A model generated the notes under the pieces. That model searched no databases, was not told the DNA's origin, and worked only from the letters and a program-made list of their open reading frames with translations. From NCBI GenBank assembly GCA_030748955.1, contig JASMKZ010000002.1, positions 10,953 through 74,952 on the forward strand: DNA of 64,000 nucleotides. The letters are read 5' to 3'. Source of the DNA: Fidelibacterota bacterium (lineage in GTDB: Bacteria > Fidelibacterota > Marinisomatia > SCGC-AAA003-L08 > D37C17). The position numbers and the translations under genes were made by a program. Shown here piece after piece: positions 6,901-24,662 of this stretch (position 1 is its first letter; each line of letters begins with the position of its first letter).

Positions 6901-7841
6901 AGGCTGTAATTTTCAATCTCTCCTGATTTTGTAATATTTGTGAGATAAACAAATCCGTTATCTGATTTAATGATGATACTATTAATTTTATCCCTTGAAA
7001 AAGAAAGGGGCTCATTTCCCCAAATATTGCTCATAAGTTCCCCACTCCTGTTTACCATAATGATATCATCCGTACCATCAAAGTTTAAGTCCACTCCATT
7101 TTCATGGAGATATTTCAAATGAGGATAACCGCTTAGTGTATTCGACATTTCTTTTCCATCTGAATAAATAATGTAGCTACTTGGTGTAAATCCATTATCT
7201 AATATGAAAATATCTTCTCCACCATCACCATCAAAATCTCCCAAGGCTATATCAATAAGGGACATGGTATTTTTTAGAAATTCTTTACCCATAAAACCTA
7301 CAGAAATTATTTCATCTCCTGAATATTCACACATGACTACTTGTCGGTTTGGACTTCCCTGAGTAAATAAAAATAGGGATTGTCCATTGGCGCCAGGTTG
7401 CATTTTGTATAATCTTCTGGGATTATTAATACTGGAGATATTTTTTATGCCAGTAATTGTTGGGGGGGTGCCATTATAACCAAATTCATCAAGAGAAAAA
7501 ATATAAAAAATGTCATTGCTATCATCCTGGTAGGCAGTTGTAATTAACTCAATGACACCATCCTTATCGAAATCTCCTAATATCATATCTACAAAATACC
7601 CCTTTTTAGTTTCCGGCATTGTAAATTCCCACAGGATTTCAGTTTTGGATGAGGAAACCTCTATATGGTATATTGTTCTGGGAGAGGCTGAATTGCTTAG
7701 AGCCATAAAATCTGGATTACCATTCCTGTTCAGGTCAAAACAGTTGATTTTAGGGACTAAGGAAAATTCCAAAGGAACAGTAGTTGCTACCAGGAATTTA
7801 AAACCAAAGATGAAGAAAAATATTTTTTCTCCGAATGTCAT
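3930..7841 (-). CDS. Large secreted protein: FG-GAP/VCBS-like repeats, acidic repeat linker, multiple Ig/cadherin-like (He_PIG-like) domains
   Basis: 1303 aa; GDFDKDG / GDFDGDG / DLNFDG repeats at N-terminus; repeated 'G.I.W.P...D.G.Y.F.L.VTDG' units at C-terminus. Confidence 0.8.
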   Translation of the reverse strand: MTFGEKIFFFIFGFKFLVATTVPLEFSLVPKINCFDLNRNGNPDFMALSNSASPRTIYHIEVSSSKTEILWEFTMPETKKGYFVDMILGDFDKDGVIELITTAYQDDSNDIFYIFSLDEFGYNGTPPTITGIKNISSINNPRRLYKMQPGANGQSLFLFTQGSPNRQVVMCEYSGDEIISVGFMGKEFLKNTMSLIDIALGDFDGDGGEDIFILDNGFTPSSYIIYSDGKEMSNTLSGYPHLKYLHENGVDLNFDGTDDIIMVNRSGELMSNIWGNEPLSFSRDKINSIIIKSDNGFVYLTNITKSGEIENYSLDPLTRSILSSEIISPKFNHNGYKTVHSLITQKDILLFHDGNNPELWLTSLAIELITDTSPPLPIQRIYNRNPDYVINVGDIFSHSIQWETSATFRNFTEEFLPENMEFDLDELTLNWIPRQTQLGYHELSYRLELREEGNRKLASDNGKIYVSQNESLSEKPYSFLLYVNDPISFQKQQDSITIVYGELFEWIIPIDDNNADAQLSVEIISGKKSANYDLLQPEITPIPTANKIKEEPAVVESEPAVVESEPAVVESEEIVEIESEVKTDPVVPQQETINENIKIEIEKPIYVDSIRTEYEKFAEEKLELEEDPFKKTKQESAVEEFKTMEEEYREKLKTHKKILKDGNNIWIPIDSLLVSEDSTTVEEPKNENPEVSEVATIPASDSLSISDKTGDEELIVENIEEISIDSLLVSEDSTTVEAPKIKNPEVSEVATIPASDSLSISDKTGDEELIVENIEEISNIDNQFVEITYAELVKHKTQFSWLPHTAPGDYNFTIAVTDGFTSDTSLFTITVHPEIDLSLNKTYFTATVDQMFNTSLILKPSSQSEKYKFNLIDAPENMRIDTTGTINWVPLPTQVDDYNFQLEVTDGIATSRLQYEIYVNALPVISSRPEEIFILPLGEQLNFPMENFDMNTNTELKWKLLSGPTDMALNSQGVLNWRGFELGHHPYEIQLTDGIDSVQWEASIYVNAPPVITSKPVVVVLEGERYEYPLFAMDENTISPNDSLAENIITFSLAQGPEGMKIENNILVWETNDNHLGEYMVAITANDGVQDAIQVFPVFINSLPVITSPDSVTVQLGDTLRMQIEAYDPNPGDSLTFHLDSLQNGLVLELNTGLITWLPKKSDIGLHKFTLQVKDGHDNTGTAIPFQIYVYRPPLLTSKLSTEAFVGLEYAAFITAEDLYGKKLSRPESIQIDSASFNYYSLSEYAHLFRWTPRDIDKGDHELIIRITDEHGFINLHSHKFSVFTNPCVQCYIDEMPADSTGN
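5508..5837. repeat. Tandem duplication, 2 x 165 bp (55 aa) within the large secreted protein
   Basis: Copies 5508-5672 and 5673-5837; I count 3 mismatches (EEPKNENPE vs EAPKIKNPE). Confidence 0.95.
6127..6191. repeat. Tandem repeat, 3 x 21 bp (EPAVVES)
   Basis: tcagattcaaccacagcagg(t/c) x3. Confidence 0.95.
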
Positions 7842-18355: not shown

Positions 18356-18379
18356 GGTATCTCCTTATTATTTATTGTG

Positions 18380-18452
18380 AGCCACCGAGAGGAGTTGAAC
18401 CCCCGACCCAATCATTACGAATGATTTGCTCTACCAACTGAGCTACGGTGGC
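18380..18452 (-). tRNA. tRNA-Thr(CGT)
   Basis: Reverse complement GCCACCGTAGCTCAGTTGGTAGAGC-AATCA TTCGTAA TGATT-GGGTCGGGGGTTCAACTCCTCTCGGTGGCT; cloverleaf with anticodon CGT; CCA not encoded. Confidence 0.95.
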
Positions 18453-18743: not shown

Positions 18744-19799
18744 ATGAAAAATGTTTTTCTTATTCCATTCATTTTTATTTTGGCATGCTCAAATAAAAAT
18801 ACTCTAAATATGGATCATCATAATACCCGAAGTTTTCAATTTACCTATGAAGTTCTAGTAGAGCCCACCCATGGTAATAAACTGGAATTGTGGCTTCCAG
18901 TACCCACATCCAGCAATGTTCAGGAAATTTCAAATTTGCAGATAATGAGTGAACATTTGGCATATACAGTAAAAGATGAGCCCATACATGGGAATAGATA
19001 TCTGTATATTTTTAGTAAAATGGGAATAGCTAATCCAACTACAATAACCATGACATTTGATGTACATCGGAAAGAACATGGCAATATTGCAGATAAAAAT
19101 GCAGACCCAAATAATTATTTAGGGTCATATAGCAATGTGCCAACTGGCAATATTTTTACCAAAATCATTAATGAAAATGATTTGTCTAGAAATGATATAA
19201 GAGGCATTTATGATTTTGTTTTTGAGGGGATGCATTACGGAAAACCGAAGAGTGTGGATAATATTTACTATAAATCCCCCTGGTTGAATGCAGAAAATCT
19301 GTATGGTCAGAAAGGAGTAACTCGAGATGATGTGGTGAGATTGTATCAACAATCAAAAAATGATGGTGGAGATTACACGTTTGGGAAAGGCAACTCTATT
19401 TATGCCTGTAATATCGGTGTGGGAAACTGTACCGATTACCATTCTTATTTTATGTCATTGGGACGTACCTTGGGTGTGCCTGTTCGTTTTCATATGGGTT
19501 TTCCTATTCCATCTGAGCGCGAGGGTATAGTTGGTGGCTACCACTGCTGGGCAGATTATTATGTTGAGGGCGAGGGCTGGTATCCTGTAGATATTTCGGA
19601 GGGAGATAAAGATCCTCAGCGTAAGGATTATTATTTTGGTACCTTAGATAATAACCGTGTTGAAATGATATTGGGTAGAGATATTAAATTGGAAGGCTAC
19701 GAAATGGGAACTACTAATTTATTCATATATCCTATTATGGAAATAAATGATCAAACCTCCTCTGCCTTTAGTAAAAGTTTTCAATATAAAGAAATATAA
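18744..19799 (+). CDS. Transglutaminase-like domain lipoprotein
   Basis: Lipobox ILAC; Cys-His-Asp triad motifs GNCTDYH, HCWADYY, WYPVD. Confidence 0.9.
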   Translation: MKNVFLIPFIFILACSNKNTLNMDHHNTRSFQFTYEVLVEPTHGNKLELWLPVPTSSNVQEISNLQIMSEHLAYTVKDEPIHGNRYLYIFSKMGIANPTTITMTFDVHRKEHGNIADKNADPNNYLGSYSNVPTGNIFTKIINENDLSRNDIRGIYDFVFEGMHYGKPKSVDNIYYKSPWLNAENLYGQKGVTRDDVVRLYQQSKNDGGDYTFGKGNSIYACNIGVGNCTDYHSYFMSLGRTLGVPVRFHMGFPIPSEREGIVGGYHCWADYYVEGEGWYPVDISEGDKDPQRKDYYFGTLDNNRVEMILGRDIKLEGYEMGTTNLFIYPIMEINDQTSSAFSKSFQYKEI

Positions 19800-19857
19800 T
19801 TATTACATTAATAATTAACTATCATTTAATTAATTAAAAGTTCTATCTTTTGGATTA

Positions 19858-20241
19858 ATGAATGACAGCAAAATAAACTATAAAGATATTCTAAATCCGG
19901 ATGAGTACCGAATAGCCAGAGAGGGTGCCACGGAAGCACCATTCACTGGGAAATACTGCAGCCTCTTTGAACCGGGCACTTATCTCTGTATTTGTTGCGA
20001 CACCCCCCTTTTCAGTTCTGAAACAAAATATGATTCCGGTGGCGGATGGCCTGATTTTACAGGAGCAATAACCGAAGGTTTAATAAAGTATGTGGATGAT
20101 TTCAGTTCTGGGGAAAAACAGATTGAAGTCAAATGCAATCATTGTGATGCTCACCTGGGACATGTATTTGATGATGGTCCACCGCCGGATTTCAAACGCT
20201 ACTGAATCAATTCTGCATCCCTGAAGTTTCAGGCAGAATGA
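19858..20241 (+). CDS. msrB: Peptide-methionine (R)-S-oxide reductase MsrB, predicted selenoprotein (UGA at 20203-20205 = Sec116), 127 aa
   Basis: GTE.PF, two CxxC Zn motifs, GWP.F, HLGHVF.DGP; in-frame TGA at the catalytic Cys of RY[C]INS.SL.F; frame continues INSASLKFQAE to TGA at 20239-20241. Confidence 0.9.
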
Positions 20242-20243
20242 TT
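20205..20243 (+). promoter_or_regulatory. Putative bacterial SECIS element
   Basis: ATTCTGC(20210-16)/GCAGAAT(20233-39) stem, ATCC bulge, CTGA/TCAG upper stem, AGTT apical loop starting 19 nt after UGA. Confidence 0.75.
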
Positions 20244-20251
20244 TTGGATTA

Positions 20252-20280
20252 GGTATGAAAATTAACTTAATTTTCATACC
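20252..20280. repeat. Perfect 14-1-14 inverted repeat
   Basis: GGTATGAAAATTAA-C-TTAATTTTCATACC. Confidence 0.9.
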
Positions 20281-20319
20281 GATGCAAGGGGAAGAAATAT
20301 TAAACTTTTACACTGAGAC

Positions 20320-20347
20320 AACCTCAATTTATTTGGGGTTTTTTTTT
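20320..20347 (+). terminator. Intrinsic terminator between msrB and carA
   Basis: AACCTCAA-tttat-TTGGGGTT hairpin (one G-U) followed by a T run. Confidence 0.65.
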
Positions 20348-20383
20348 ACTCAAAATGTTTATATCCAGCAATAATACAAATTA

Positions 20384-21469
20384 ATGACTAAATCTGCAAA
20401 ATTAATACTTGAAAACGGAACCATATTCTCTGGGATTTCTTTTGGTGCGGAGGGAGAAACTATCGGCGAAGTTTGTTTTAATACAGGTATGACAGGCTAT
20501 CAAGAAATTCTCACCGACCCCTCTTACTGCGGACAACTCATCACTATGACGTACCCGCATATTGGTAATTATGGTGTAAATGAAGAAGATATTGAATCTA
20601 ATAAAATTTATGCTGCTGGCTTTATTATTAGGGAAGAAAATGTCGTTCCATCAAATTATAGATCGACACAATCATTGGGTGAATATTTACGGACTCAAAA
20701 GATTGTGGGCATCCAAAAAATTGATACGCGCATGCTCACTCGAATTCTTCGAGATGAAGGCGCCATGAATGGTATAATCAGTACCGTTGATTTGGATGAT
20801 GATTCCTTGCTTCAAAAGGTTAAGATGGCCCCTTCAATGGATGGTTTAGATTTAGCCAAAGTGGTGACTTGTGATAAAAGCTATAAATGGAGCAAAGGGA
20901 AATATAAAATTGCTGCCATTGACTTCGGTATAAAACATAACATTCTTCGATTACTTGAATCTCATGGATGTGACATAACCGTTTTTCCTGCAACTGCTTC
21001 TGCAACTGAGATATTAAACATAAATCCTGATGGAATTTTTCTTTCTAATGGCCCCGGTGATCCAGCTGCAGTTACGTATGGAATTAAAACTGTAAAAGAA
21101 CTATTAGGTAAAAAACCCCTTTTCGGTATATGTTTAGGACATCAGATTTTAGCCTTGGCTTTGGGTGCTAAAACCTATAAACTGAAATTTGGACATCGAG
21201 GCTGTAATCATCCGGTAAGAAATGAGGCAACAGGAGTAGTTGAAATTACCAGTCAAAATCATGGGTTTGCGGTGGATGCAAATTCATTATCTGAGAATAT
21301 GGAAGTTACTCATTTGAGTTTGAATGATCAAACAGTAGAAGGTTTAAAATGTACAAATGTGCAGGCATTTTCAGTTCAGTATCATCCCGAATCTAGTCCG
21401 GGGCCACATGATAGTCGGTACTTATTTCAAAATTTTATAGACATGATGACGGAAAAAGAATATGCCTAA
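20384..21469 (+). CDS. carA: Carbamoyl-phosphate synthase small subunit
   Basis: [33 protein letters not shown] motifs. Confidence 0.98.
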
Positions 21470-24400
21470 AAGAACTGATATAGAATCCATATTAATTATT
21501 GGCGCCGGACCCATTATTATTGGGCAGGCCTGTGAATTTGATTACTCTGGCACTCAGGCTTGCAGGGCTTTGCGGGAAGAAGGCTATAGAATCATTTTGG
21601 TGAACTCCAATCCGGCTACTATTATGACAGATCGCAATCTGGCAGATGCCACATATTTAGAGCCGATAACTTCAAAAGCTGTGACGGCTATTATTGAGAA
21701 AGAACAACCGGATGCTCTCCTTCCCACCGTAGGTGGTCAGACTGCACTTGATACGGCAATGGCGTTACACAAAGATGGTGTTTTGGGAAAATATAAAGTG
21801 GAACTTATTGGCGCTAATGTTGAGGCAATCCAGCGGGCTGAGGATAGGGAAGAATTCAAAATTGCCATGGATGAGGTGGGTATTGAAACTGCCCGGGGTG
21901 GATTTTCCAATACAATGGATGAAGCCGACAAGGTTATTGAAGATATACCCTTTCCGGTAATTATCCGGCCCTCATTTACCATGGGAGGCACTGGTGGTTC
22001 TGTGGCCTATAACGTGGAAGAGTTTCATGAATTAGTAGAAAATGGATTATCTGCCAGCCCTATTTCAGAAGTGCTCATCGAAGAATCTTTGTTGGGTTGG
22101 AAAGAGTATGAAATGGAAGTCGTCCGTGATGGTATGGATAATGCCATTATTATCTGCTCTATTGAGAATTTGGACCCTATGGGTGTGCATACTGGTGATT
22201 CAATTACGGTTGCTCCAGCACAGACACTCACTGATAAAGAATACCAGAAAATGCGAAACTGGTCAATCCTATGCTTACGAACAATTGGTGTGGATACTGG
22301 CGGATCAAATGTACAGTTCACCGTGAATCCTGTTGATGGTAGAATGATCATTATCGAAATGAATCCCCGTGTGAGCCGTTCATCAGCTCTTGCATCCAAA
22401 GCAACAGGGTTCCCCATTGCCAAAGTGGCGGCTAAGCTTGCAGTGGGGTATACTCTAGATGAACTGCAGAATGATATTACCGGGCAGACGATGGCTGCCT
22501 TTGAACCCAGCATTGACTATGTGGTAACCAAAATCCCCCGATTTGATTTTGAGAAGTTCCCTTCAGCATCCGGAATATTAGGTGTTCAAATGCAGTCGGT
22601 GGGTGAAGTAATGGCCATTGGTAGAACTTTCCGTGAAAGTCTGCAGAAAGCATTCCGTTCATTAGAGGTTGGGCTGAATGGATTTGAACCGAAGGAAACT
22701 GAATACCGCGATTTGGATCTGGGTAAAATTCGTTTTGCTTCAGCTTTCCGATTACTAAAAGTAAAACAGGCGTTTGAAGAGGGACATTCTATTGAAGATG
22801 TTTTTGAACAGACTAAAATTGACCCTTGGTTTTTATATCAAATTCAGAAATTAATATCTGTGGGGGCAGAATGCATTCCACCTTTTAAAGGAAAACAATT
22901 CAATGTTTCCCTACGAGAATTAAAACAAAATGGCTTTTCAGACCACCAAATCGCCCAGAAGTGGGAAAAAACTGATGATGAAATTCGACAGATGCGAAAG
23001 GATGAAAATATCCTACCAACATACAAAGTGGTAGACACATGCGCTGCGGAGTTTGAAGCACTCACTCCCTACTGTTATTCCACTTACGAAACGGAAAATG
23101 AAATTACATCTATAGAAGGAAAAAAGATGATGATTTTGGGTGGTGGTCCCAACCGAATTGGCCAAGGGATTGAGTTCGATTACTGCTGTGTTCAGGCTGT
23201 ATTTGGTTTGAAAGAAGCCGGCTATAAAACCATCATGGTAAATTGTAATCCGGAGACAGTTTCTACCGATTTTGACATTGCAGATCGCCTATATTTTGAG
23301 CCCCTCACATTTGAAGATGTGATGAATATTGTGGATTTAGAAAATCCAGATGGTGTTTTGGTTCAGTTTGGGGGTCAAACACCTCTCAATATTGCTAATC
23401 GTTTAAAAGATGCAGGGGTAAATATTATTGGTACCAATCCTGATGCCATTGATCTGGCTGAAAATCGTGATAAATTCGGGAAAATTTTAGATGGCTTGAA
23501 AATTCCTGTACCCAAGTGGGGAACTGCTTTTTCTGTGGATGAAGCCTTGGTAGTGGCTCATGATGTGGGATATCCCGTTTTGGTTCGACCCTCTTATGTA
23601 TTGGGTGGCAGGGGAATGGAAATTGTTTACGATGACGATGGCCTCAAAACCTATGTGGGTAAAGCCGCACTGGTTTCAGGTGAGCATCCTATTTTGGTGG
23701 ATGCCTTTTTAGAAGATGCCTTTGAGTTTGATGTGGATGCCCTCTGTGATGGCACTGATGTTTTTGTGGCAGGAATTATGCAACATATTGAAGAAGCTGG
23801 CATACATTCGGGAGATTCGGCCTGTGTACTACCAGCTTATGAGCTCACATCAACATCTAGAAGATTGATTAAAGATTATACCAAAGAATTGGCATTGAGT
23901 TTGAATACCGTTGGGCTCATTAATATCCAGTTTGCAATGAAGAATGATGTAGTATATGTGATAGAAGTAAATCCGCGGGCAAGTCGAACCGTGCCATTTA
24001 TTAGCAAAGTGATTGATTTTCCATTAGCCAAAGTAGCGGCACAATTAGCAGTGGGTAAAACGTTGTCTGAATTTGAACTTCCATCCACATCTAAAAATGA
24101 ACTTATTGCAGTTAAGAAGCCTGTATTCCCTTTTAATAAATTTCCTCAACAGAATGTATTTTTATCGCCGGAAATGAAATCCACTGGTGAAGTAATTGGA
24201 TTCGATAAACATTTGGGTAGCGCATATGCTAAAGCAGAAGCTGGTGCCGGAAACTCATTGCCTGAGAAGGGTACTATTTTCATTTCTGTAAATAATTTAG
24301 ATAAGGTTAAGGCCATTCCGCTGGCGCGGGATTTTCAAGAATTGGGATTTGATATCATTGCTACCAATGGCACAGCAGACCTTTTATCTGAAAATGGTGT

Positions 24401-24662
24401 GGCAGCTCGCCCCATATTTAAGGTAGGTGAGGGTCGCCCAAATGTTGTGGATGCTATTAAAAATGGCGAGGTTCAGTTGGTGGTAAATACGCCCATGGGT
24501 GCTCAGGCTCGAGAAGATGAATATGAAATTGGCCGTTCTGCCATCCGCCATAAAATACCAGCCATTACCACCATCTCTGGAGCACAGGCAGCAGTGCGGG
24601 GAATTCGAAATATTAAGAATGGTTCACTTCAATACCGCAGTTTGCAGGAGGTGTTTGGATAA
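21462..24662 (+). CDS. carB: Carbamoyl-phosphate synthase large subunit
   Basis: [22 protein letters not shown]; two ATP-grasp domains; C-terminal MGS domain. Confidence 0.98.

Follow-up and report, generated by a model that had tools for sequence, protein, structure and literature searches.

An msrB gene with an in-frame TGA codon

The 64,000-nucleotide stretch of Fidelibacterota contig JASMKZ010000002.1 that we analyzed (hereafter the window) contains an msrB gene, predicted to encode a methionine-R-sulfoxide reductase (MsrB), in which TGA occupies the position of the catalytic residue. According to translation table 11, the gene extends on the forward strand from ATG at position 19858 to TGA at 20203-20205, and its 115-amino acid product ends in DGPPPDFKRY. 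Read-through of this TGA adds INSASLKFQAE before a second TGA is reached at 20239-20241. The full coding sequence (19858-20241, + strand) then comprises 127 codons plus the true stop, and codon 116 is predicted to specify selenocysteine (Sec, or U) as the catalytic nucleophile within RY-U-INS. The initial annotation had described this frame, and our re-reading of the sequence produced an identical one.

The 127-residue product matches the Pfam family SelR (PF01641) across the TGA codon with an E value of 2.2e-45, from residues 12 to 125 and from profile positions 1 to 115 of 116. The score of 153.8 bits, compared with a cut-off of 24.9, is that of a full-length MsrB domain, and the NCBIfam model TIGR00357 (MsrB) gives 160.6 bits against a cut-off of 113.05. 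The best match in the PDB is 2k8d, a 1-Cys MsrB (E=2.8e-44, ungapped over residues 7-124), and human MsrB3 is also close. In both alignments, the catalytic Cys sits in the TGA column. A six-frame search found no other MsrB match in the metagenome-assembled genome (MAG) from which the contig derives.

This MAG comprises 1.79 Mb in 355 contigs, is 91% complete, and has a G+C content of 36%. Near relatives bear the names Candidatus Marinimicrobia or Neomarinimicrobiota (SAR406). TGA is the stop codon of 165 of the 722 long open reading frames in the MAG, and ARAGORN found no tRNA with anticodon UCA in the assembly. Thus, the genome is not recoded and uses the ordinary code.

Conservation of the TGA codon in relatives and public catalogs

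A six-frame search for msrB was conducted in 40 relatives and subsequently in 400 genomes belonging to the phylum. In 16 related Marinisomatota species genomes, msrB has a single in-frame TGA in the same column as in our gene; these genomes fall into two clades. Clade A has 13 species genomes that encode RY-U-INSASLKFQ, from five genera and two families; among its members are six more species of the genus to which our MAG belongs. Clade B consists of three genomes that encode RY-U-[IM]NSV[AS]L[RS]FKE. The remaining relatives carry Cys at this position (31 of 31 Cys-type relatives aligned), which agrees with the earlier proposal that the TGA falls on the redox-active residue of the enzyme. The TGA is therefore no singleton nonsense mutation, a possibility that the initial annotation had raised: it recurs across genera and families, with the downstream frame retained.

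One in-frame TGA found by this search was rejected as a Sec codon. In G298 (contig C6; loci L155 and L160), it falls four codons before the catalytic Cys of a Cys-type msrB (PT*KRFCVNS), and it is probably a sequencing error or a mark of a pseudogene. In addition, G006, which belongs to the same genus as our MAG, holds two msrB genes, one of Sec type and one divergent gene of Cys type, as well as two tRNA-Sec matches on separate contigs (contigs concerned: C87, C18, C198, and C129). With contamination of ~5%, this duplication may come from a mixture of strains or from contaminating DNA and not from true paralogs.

The 115-residue product was also searched against 5.8 billion public proteins, and the best 120 clusters, which are at least 70% identical (ENA, JGI, Tara, and NCBI), were taken. 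All but one of these clusters (119/120) stop at [KR]RY, with lengths of 112 to 151 residues (one has 187), most being 112 to 120. Where the DNA was inspected, for several clusters, TGA is followed by codons for INSASLKFQ. In the Tara catalog, these genes are tagged "stop_codon:yes gene_type:complete," and across all four sources (clusters P0002-P0121) clade-A msrB is entered as a complete protein of 112-120 amino acids that ends at the Sec codon. Public annotation thus systematically truncates the family, just as the initial annotation had expected of ordinary gene calling, and the catalytic residue and last 11 residues of clade-A MsrB are absent from public protein sets.

The single exception is P0093 (L248; ENA ERZ27258814 k141_990581), the only Cys form among the 120 best clusters, which is full-length (RYCLNSASLRLKPAP). 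It has TGT at the catalytic codon and an altered C terminus (LNSASLRLKPAP), lacks the hairpin described below, and retains Cys34, a residue that distinguishes clade A. P0093 is an apparent Sec-to-Cys reversion accompanied by loss of the Sec insertion sequence (SECIS).

Two further scans addressed distribution. Among the best 80 matches in a scan of GTDB species genomes, TGA forms were found in three MAGs only; two are Marinimicrobia/Neomarinimicrobiota, and the third is the same contig as the same-family genome G015. A metagenome scan that used the clade-A alignment returned 77 Cys forms and no TGA form among the matches listed, all of them distant Cys-type MsrBs; the scan was filled by matches to the generic HLGH pattern and says little about distribution beyond the phylum. 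In public data, clade A is far more widely represented than is clade B.

Selection on the codons downstream of the TGA

Codons 117-125 were compared among 12 distinct clade-A sequences. Each position has two to five codon variants, apart from four of the nine that have none or almost none, and the encoded amino acids are nonetheless invariant or nearly so. Ile117 is encoded by ATC, ATT, or ATA; Ser119 by four codons; Ala120 by all four Ala codons; Leu122 by CTG or TTG; and Gln125 by CAG or CAA. Lys123 (AAG) and Phe124 (TTT) show no codon variation. Synonymous variation at constant amino acids indicates purifying selection, and thus that the region is translated. As judged from this codon pattern, translational termination at codon 116 is excluded.

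A SECIS-like hairpin within the last codons

A core SECIS-like hairpin, consisting of a 5-bp helix and the tetraloop AGUU, lies at 20220-20233 (+ strand), where 20220-20224 pair with 20229-20233 and 20225-20228 form the loop. When the U of UGA is numbered 1, the helix joins columns 18-22 to columns 27-31. The loop starts 19 nucleotides after the UGA, with its G and U at +24 and +25. The hairpin is written in the Ser-Leu-Lys-Phe-Gln-Ala codons (codons 121-126).

When the helix is laid on the 12 distinct sequences, 96.7% of cells are paired, and two of the five pairs show compensatory changes. Pair 18-31 occurs as CG, UA, GC, or GU, and pair 19-30 as CG or UA. None of 500 shuffles reached the observed helix score, and shifting the helix register by one to three columns makes it collapse. 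In pair 19-30, both of the coupled substitutions are silent (CUG to UUG for Leu, CAG to CAA for Gln); in pair 18-31, a silent change at the third position of a Ser/Ala codon is coupled to the first base of codon 126, which is variable. Moreover, Lys123 is AAG and Leu122 is CUG or UUG in all 12 sequences, despite the fact that these account for only 23% and 29%, respectively, of genome usage. This choice of minor codons lends further support to the hairpin.

As given in the Fig. 2 legend of PMC13188914, the bacterial SECIS (bSECIS) model has a loop of 3-9 nucleotides and an upper stem of 4-16 bp at 16-37 nucleotides from the UGA. In addition, it has a G within the first two positions of the loop, with G or U next, and a minimum free energy of -7.5 kcal/mol or lower. 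With respect to this description, the hairpin has a loop (AGUU), stem (5 bp), G-then-U sequence, and spacing (19 nucleotides) that all conform to the model, and the RNA from this genome folds at -13.9 kcal/mol, compared with the -7.5 threshold. The hairpin of clade B has another sequence, CUUUGA-GGU/GUU-UCAAAG, and the G and U of its loop are at the same distance from the UGA. Several of the other selenoprotein candidates of the MAG (see below) resemble the msrB gene in having a small loop after the TGA in which G precedes G or U, such as AGUUA in the AhpC/TSA gene. Rfam has no family for the hairpin region; all matches there were sub-threshold and to eukaryotic families.

In this genus, the hairpin is extended by a lower stem, ATTCTGC/GCAGAAT (20210-20239, + strand), which includes part of the true stop codon. 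The initial annotation had already drawn attention to this stem. It is specific to the genus, covariation does not support it, and it is probably not a required part of the SECIS.

Selenocysteine machinery and other selenoprotein candidates

The MAG encodes selA (531.8 bits) and selB (398.4 bits), both above their cut-offs, as adjoining genes on contig C199. When the MAG and the 40 relatives are considered together, selD scores above the cut-off in 36 of 41 genomes and tRNA-Sec in 33 of 41; genomes from the genus of the MAG are among those with each. ARAGORN reports tRNA-SeC(UCA) in the same-genus genomes G003 and G006, and also in G012 and G025; all four hold a Sec-type msrB. In nearly every relative (G001-G039; for example, loci L122-L131), the selD of this order has one in-frame TGA of its own, which implies that selD itself encodes a selenoprotein.

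Additional selenoprotein candidates are present in the MAG. A candidate glutaredoxin gene (G000:C111:61733-61981, + strand) has TGA at the first Cys codon (WUGPC), and PF00462 spans the TGA with an E value of 2.8e-16. This TGA is retained throughout the genus and in G015, G017, and G025, and it is replaced by a Cys codon in other relatives. A thioredoxin-like/TPR candidate carries TUPGC, with PF13098 extending across the TGA (G000:C290, - strand; TGA at 1133 of the reverse strand), and an AhpC/TSA-dockerin candidate carries NUPVC, with PF00578 across the TGA at E=1.2e-19 (G000:C255, + strand; TGA at 7447). These UxxC candidates, together with selA and selB, indicate that the Sec trait is in use in the lineage.

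Contigs C292, C296, and C98 hold three further candidates, predicted to be secreted, that combine WUPAC or WUGSC with dockerin or PKD domains.

The Sec-containing glutaredoxin may be the reductant of Sec-MsrB. A strict evolutionary tie between the two was sought and not found, as several genomes that hold Sec-MsrB have a Cys-type glutaredoxin.

Active site and proposed reaction

Both zinc-binding CxxC motifs, the first (C44 and C47) at 19987-19998 and the second (C93 and C96) at 20134-20145 (both + strand), are invariant, which places the protein in the zinc-containing subclass of MsrBs. The alignment shows that HLGHVF (20152-20169, + strand), with the active-site His and Val of Cys-type enzymes, is retained despite the presence of Sec; H99, H102, V103, and N118 (the last in RYUINS) are all conserved. 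As in most MsrBs of the phylum, the usual resolving Cys is lacking (SG[SG]GWP without Cys).

A candidate replacement is Cys34, encoded by TGC at 19957-19959 (+ strand) within GKYCSLF. This residue, in the motif GxYC[STN][LF]F, is a clade-specific invariant: all 13 clade-A genomes and 119 of the 120 public clusters have Cys34, and none of the three clade-B genomes or the 31 Cys-type relatives does. Its distribution suggests that Cys34 resolves the selenenic acid formed during catalysis. A precedent by analogy may be found in the MsrB of X. campestris, in which the resolving Cys follows the N-terminal helices in the sequence and a conformational change brings it to the active site (PMC7475093).

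Engineered proteins illustrate why a resolving Cys matters. Sec versions of the 1-Cys enzymes MsrB2 and MsrB3 are more than 100-fold more active with dithiothreitol, and thioredoxin does not regenerate them unless a resolving Cys is supplied (Kim and Gladyshev, PMC1278935). Natural MsrB1 has Gly, Glu, and Phe in place of His, Val, and Asn (PMC1278935).

We propose the following sequence of events, which we infer from the conserved features described above. During translation, SelB with GTP and Sec-tRNA(Sec) would bind the mini-hairpin of codons 121-126, and UGA-116 would be decoded as selenocysteine and not as a stop. Eleven further residues would then be translated, completing the MsrB fold, and synthesis would end at the next UGA. 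In the mature enzyme, Sec116 is expected to attack methionine-R-sulfoxide in oxidized proteins, which would release methionine and leave a selenenic acid. Cys34 would most likely resolve this acid, giving a selenenylsulfide that would be open to reduction by thioredoxin or glutaredoxin.

Genomic neighborhood

The gene order transglutaminase-like gene, msrB, carA, and carB is retained across loci (18744-24662 in the window; loci L242-L247). A YbjQ gene sometimes follows the transglutaminase-core gene in this block, and a tRNA-Thr(CGT) gene lies nearby at 18379-18452 on the minus strand. A consensus scan found a terminator-like hairpin followed by a T run at 20320-20350 (+ strand), ~80 nucleotides past the true msrB stop, which is probably where the msrB transcript ends. 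Just 3' of the msrB stop is an inverted repeat with perfect 14-bp arms, GGTATGAAAATTAA-c-TTAATTTTCATACC (20252-20280). It might act as a further terminator or, lying between msrB and carA, as a palindrome bound by a protein.

Interpretation of the TGA codon

These comparisons indicate that the msrB gene very probably encodes a genuine, conserved, and environmentally abundant bacterial Sec-MsrB. We favor this interpretation because TGA and Cys share one catalytic column, the downstream codons appear to be translated, a covarying hairpin follows the TGA, selA and selB are present in the MAG, and the full machinery is found in the lineage. The same evidence supports the 127-residue selenoenzyme with Sec116 that the initial annotation had proposed.

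Several observations weigh against Sec-MsrB. No selD match (TIGR00476) was obtained in the 91%-complete, 355-contig MAG, and searches of the MAG with Rfam model RF01852, with ARAGORN, and with blastn by using a same-genus tRNA-Sec locus did not find tRNA-Sec. The RNAs of some orthologs fold at -3.9 to -7 kcal/mol, weaker than the -7.5 kcal/mol of the bSECIS model, because they do not share the lower stem. The conserved helix is short (5 bp) and lies within conserved coding sequence, and three of its five pairs never vary. The lower stem is 76.7% paired, without covariation, and is not conserved outside the genus. Finally, the evidence for the role of Cys34 is its pattern of conservation, and clade B has no equivalent conserved Cys.

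The gap in the Sec machinery is best explained by incomplete assembly, because relatives have both selD and tRNA-Sec. Of the machinery that the initial annotation had pointed to, selA and selB were located in the MAG itself, whereas selD and tRNA-Sec were found in most relatives and not there. In total, 32 tRNAs were detected in the whole MAG; the best RF01852 match is tRNA-Ser(GGA) and was rejected as a tRNA-Sec.

Three other explanations for the TGA were considered. The first is that the TGA arose in an ordinary Cys-type msrB by nonsense mutation, as a lesion of a pseudogene, or through faulty assembly; the standard annotation does end msrB at 20205. However, the same TGA recurs in the genomes of 16 species and in all but one of the 120 independent public clusters, the 11 downstream codons are under purifying selection, and this is the sole msrB of the genome, so that the probability of such a lesion is negligible. 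The TGA might instead be a real stop. The product, MsrB-like and 115 residues long, would then have no nucleophile and might bind methionine sulfoxide, and the hairpin might serve as an element for mRNA stability or termination. Public catalogs do call these genes complete at the TGA, and the hairpin is at the 3' end of the gene, with a terminator-like site after it. Nevertheless, the amino acids encoded after the TGA are conserved despite synonymous variation and reproduce the MsrB motif INSxxLxF, and the Pfam domain needs these residues. Moreover, the alternation of Sec and Cys in one column, including a Cys member within the clade, is a classic selenoprotein signature. We therefore regard a real stop as very improbable.

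A third explanation, to which we assign a small probability that is nonetheless the largest of the three, is that the UGA is read through with a residue other than Sec. Either Cys would be carried by tRNA-Sec when selenium is scarce, or a near-cognate tRNA would insert Trp or Cys, and the enzyme would often or always be a Cys-MsrB. Selenium is low in the surface ocean, and the MAG yielded no selD. Furthermore, the His, Val, and Asn residues that Cys-type MsrBs need are retained (PMC1278935). However, selA, selB, selC, and a Sec-containing selD have all been kept in the lineage, as has a SelB-type hairpin in msrB. In addition, TGY is only one mutation away from TGA, yet it is found in just one of 120 clusters.

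Origin and significance of the probable bacterial Sec-MsrB

A maximum-likelihood tree places both clades, A with support of 100/97 and B with 100/99, inside a Marinisomatota group (100/99) that also holds Cys-type members of the same order. This nesting among Cys-type MsrBs of the phylum indicates an origin independent of MsrB1. As judged from the tree, the ancestors of the Sec forms were Cys-type MsrBs of bacteria and not eukaryotic MsrB1, with one or two origins within the phylum.

Sec-containing MsrBs are established in animals (MsrB1, also called SelR, and a Metridium protein), and algae are listed as well (PMC7539508); an earlier report stated that they occur in vertebrates only (PMC1278935). 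A review published in May 2026, which covers more than 110 families of selenoproteins in prokaryotes, includes MsrA and not MsrB. MsrB, SelR, and PF01641 are unmentioned in the GOS 2008 survey, a 2022 review, the deep-Sep 2025 reference sets (with supplements), and the May 2026 review, in which only MsrA appears; mentions elsewhere are possible. NCBIfam has no Sec-specific MsrB model. The suggestion that bacterial Sec-MsrB is rare or poorly characterized is consistent with this literature, where bacterial lists give MsrA only.

Although the enzyme and the recoding mechanism are known, this form is set apart as new by its bacterial host, its independent origin, its Cys-type pocket, its new candidate resolving Cys, and its minimal SECIS in the C-terminal codons. 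MsrB is a textbook selenoenzyme that was thought to be confined to animals and, lately, algae, and a bacterial form adds a family to the prokaryotic selenoproteome. As the sole MsrB of an abundant uncultured SAR406 lineage, it would tie selenium supply to oxidative protein repair. The protein also offers a natural comparison of catalysis by Sec and by Cys, with Sec in a Cys-type active site beside a candidate resolving Cys. Furthermore, its very small SECIS, a 5-bp helix with a tetraloop, is compatible with a conserved C-terminal peptide.

Taken together, the observations permit a broader proposal, which we put forward tentatively and hold to be somewhat less probable than its opposite. Clade A may constitute an uncataloged, ocean-abundant family of prokaryotic selenoproteins, independent of MsrB1, that has solved the problem of thioredoxin recycling in another way. 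It would have kept the His/Val/Asn pocket, which impaired mammalian Sec-MsrB1 in vitro, and recruited Cys34 just ahead of the first CxxC. Within this genus, the enzyme would perhaps be recycled by the Sec-containing glutaredoxin of the same cell, a second natural instance of the "tandem Sec use" known from Sec-MsrA and Sec-glutaredoxin of Clostridium.

Comparison with known systems

The Cys-type 1-Cys MsrBs (PF01641/TIGR00357), such as 2k8d from Methanothermobacter and 6qa0 (human MsrB3), share with this protein the fold, the length, both CxxC zinc sites, HLGHVF, and RYxINS, and likewise lack the usual resolving Cys, with Ser or Gly in SGxGWP. In contrast to these enzymes, the protein encoded in the window has UGA/Sec as its catalytic residue, an extra invariant Cys34, a SECIS-like hairpin in its last codons, and DGPPPDF before RY where DGPxPTG is usual.

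MsrB1 of animals and algae (SelR/SelX; 2kv1 and 3mao) resembles it in being an MsrB with catalytic Sec and no proximal resolving Cys. MsrB1 relies on a different Cys, Cys4, for its selenenylsulfide, and thioredoxin is able to reduce this bond (PMC1278935; PMC7539508). However, MsrB1 depends on a eukaryotic SECIS in the 3' UTR and has Gly, Glu, and Phe, whereas the gene described here carries a bacterial-type hairpin in its coding region and retains H99, V103, and N118. The match to MsrB1 is distant (E ~1e-15). Thus, to judge by sequence, this protein would be MsrB1-like in its working but is not a member of the MsrB1 (SelR) subfamily.

The Sec-containing MsrA of bacteria (Clostridium, or Alkaliphilus, oremlandii CoMsrA, with GUFWG) also combines catalytic Sec with a bacterial SECIS immediately downstream, but it has an unrelated fold (PF01625) and acts on the opposite sulfoxide stereoisomer. 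According to reference 85 as cited in the May 2026 review, the Clostridium Sec-MsrA works with a Sec-containing glutaredoxin, and the MAG likewise holds a candidate for such a glutaredoxin.

A counterpart with Sec outside clade A is the clade-B Sec-MsrB (RY-U-MNSVALRF), which shares the phylum, the TGA column, the distance of the mini-hairpin from the UGA, and the Cys-type active site. It belongs to a separate clade with 45-47% identity, and it has PDESQKTG instead of DGPPPDF, another hairpin sequence, and no Cys34.

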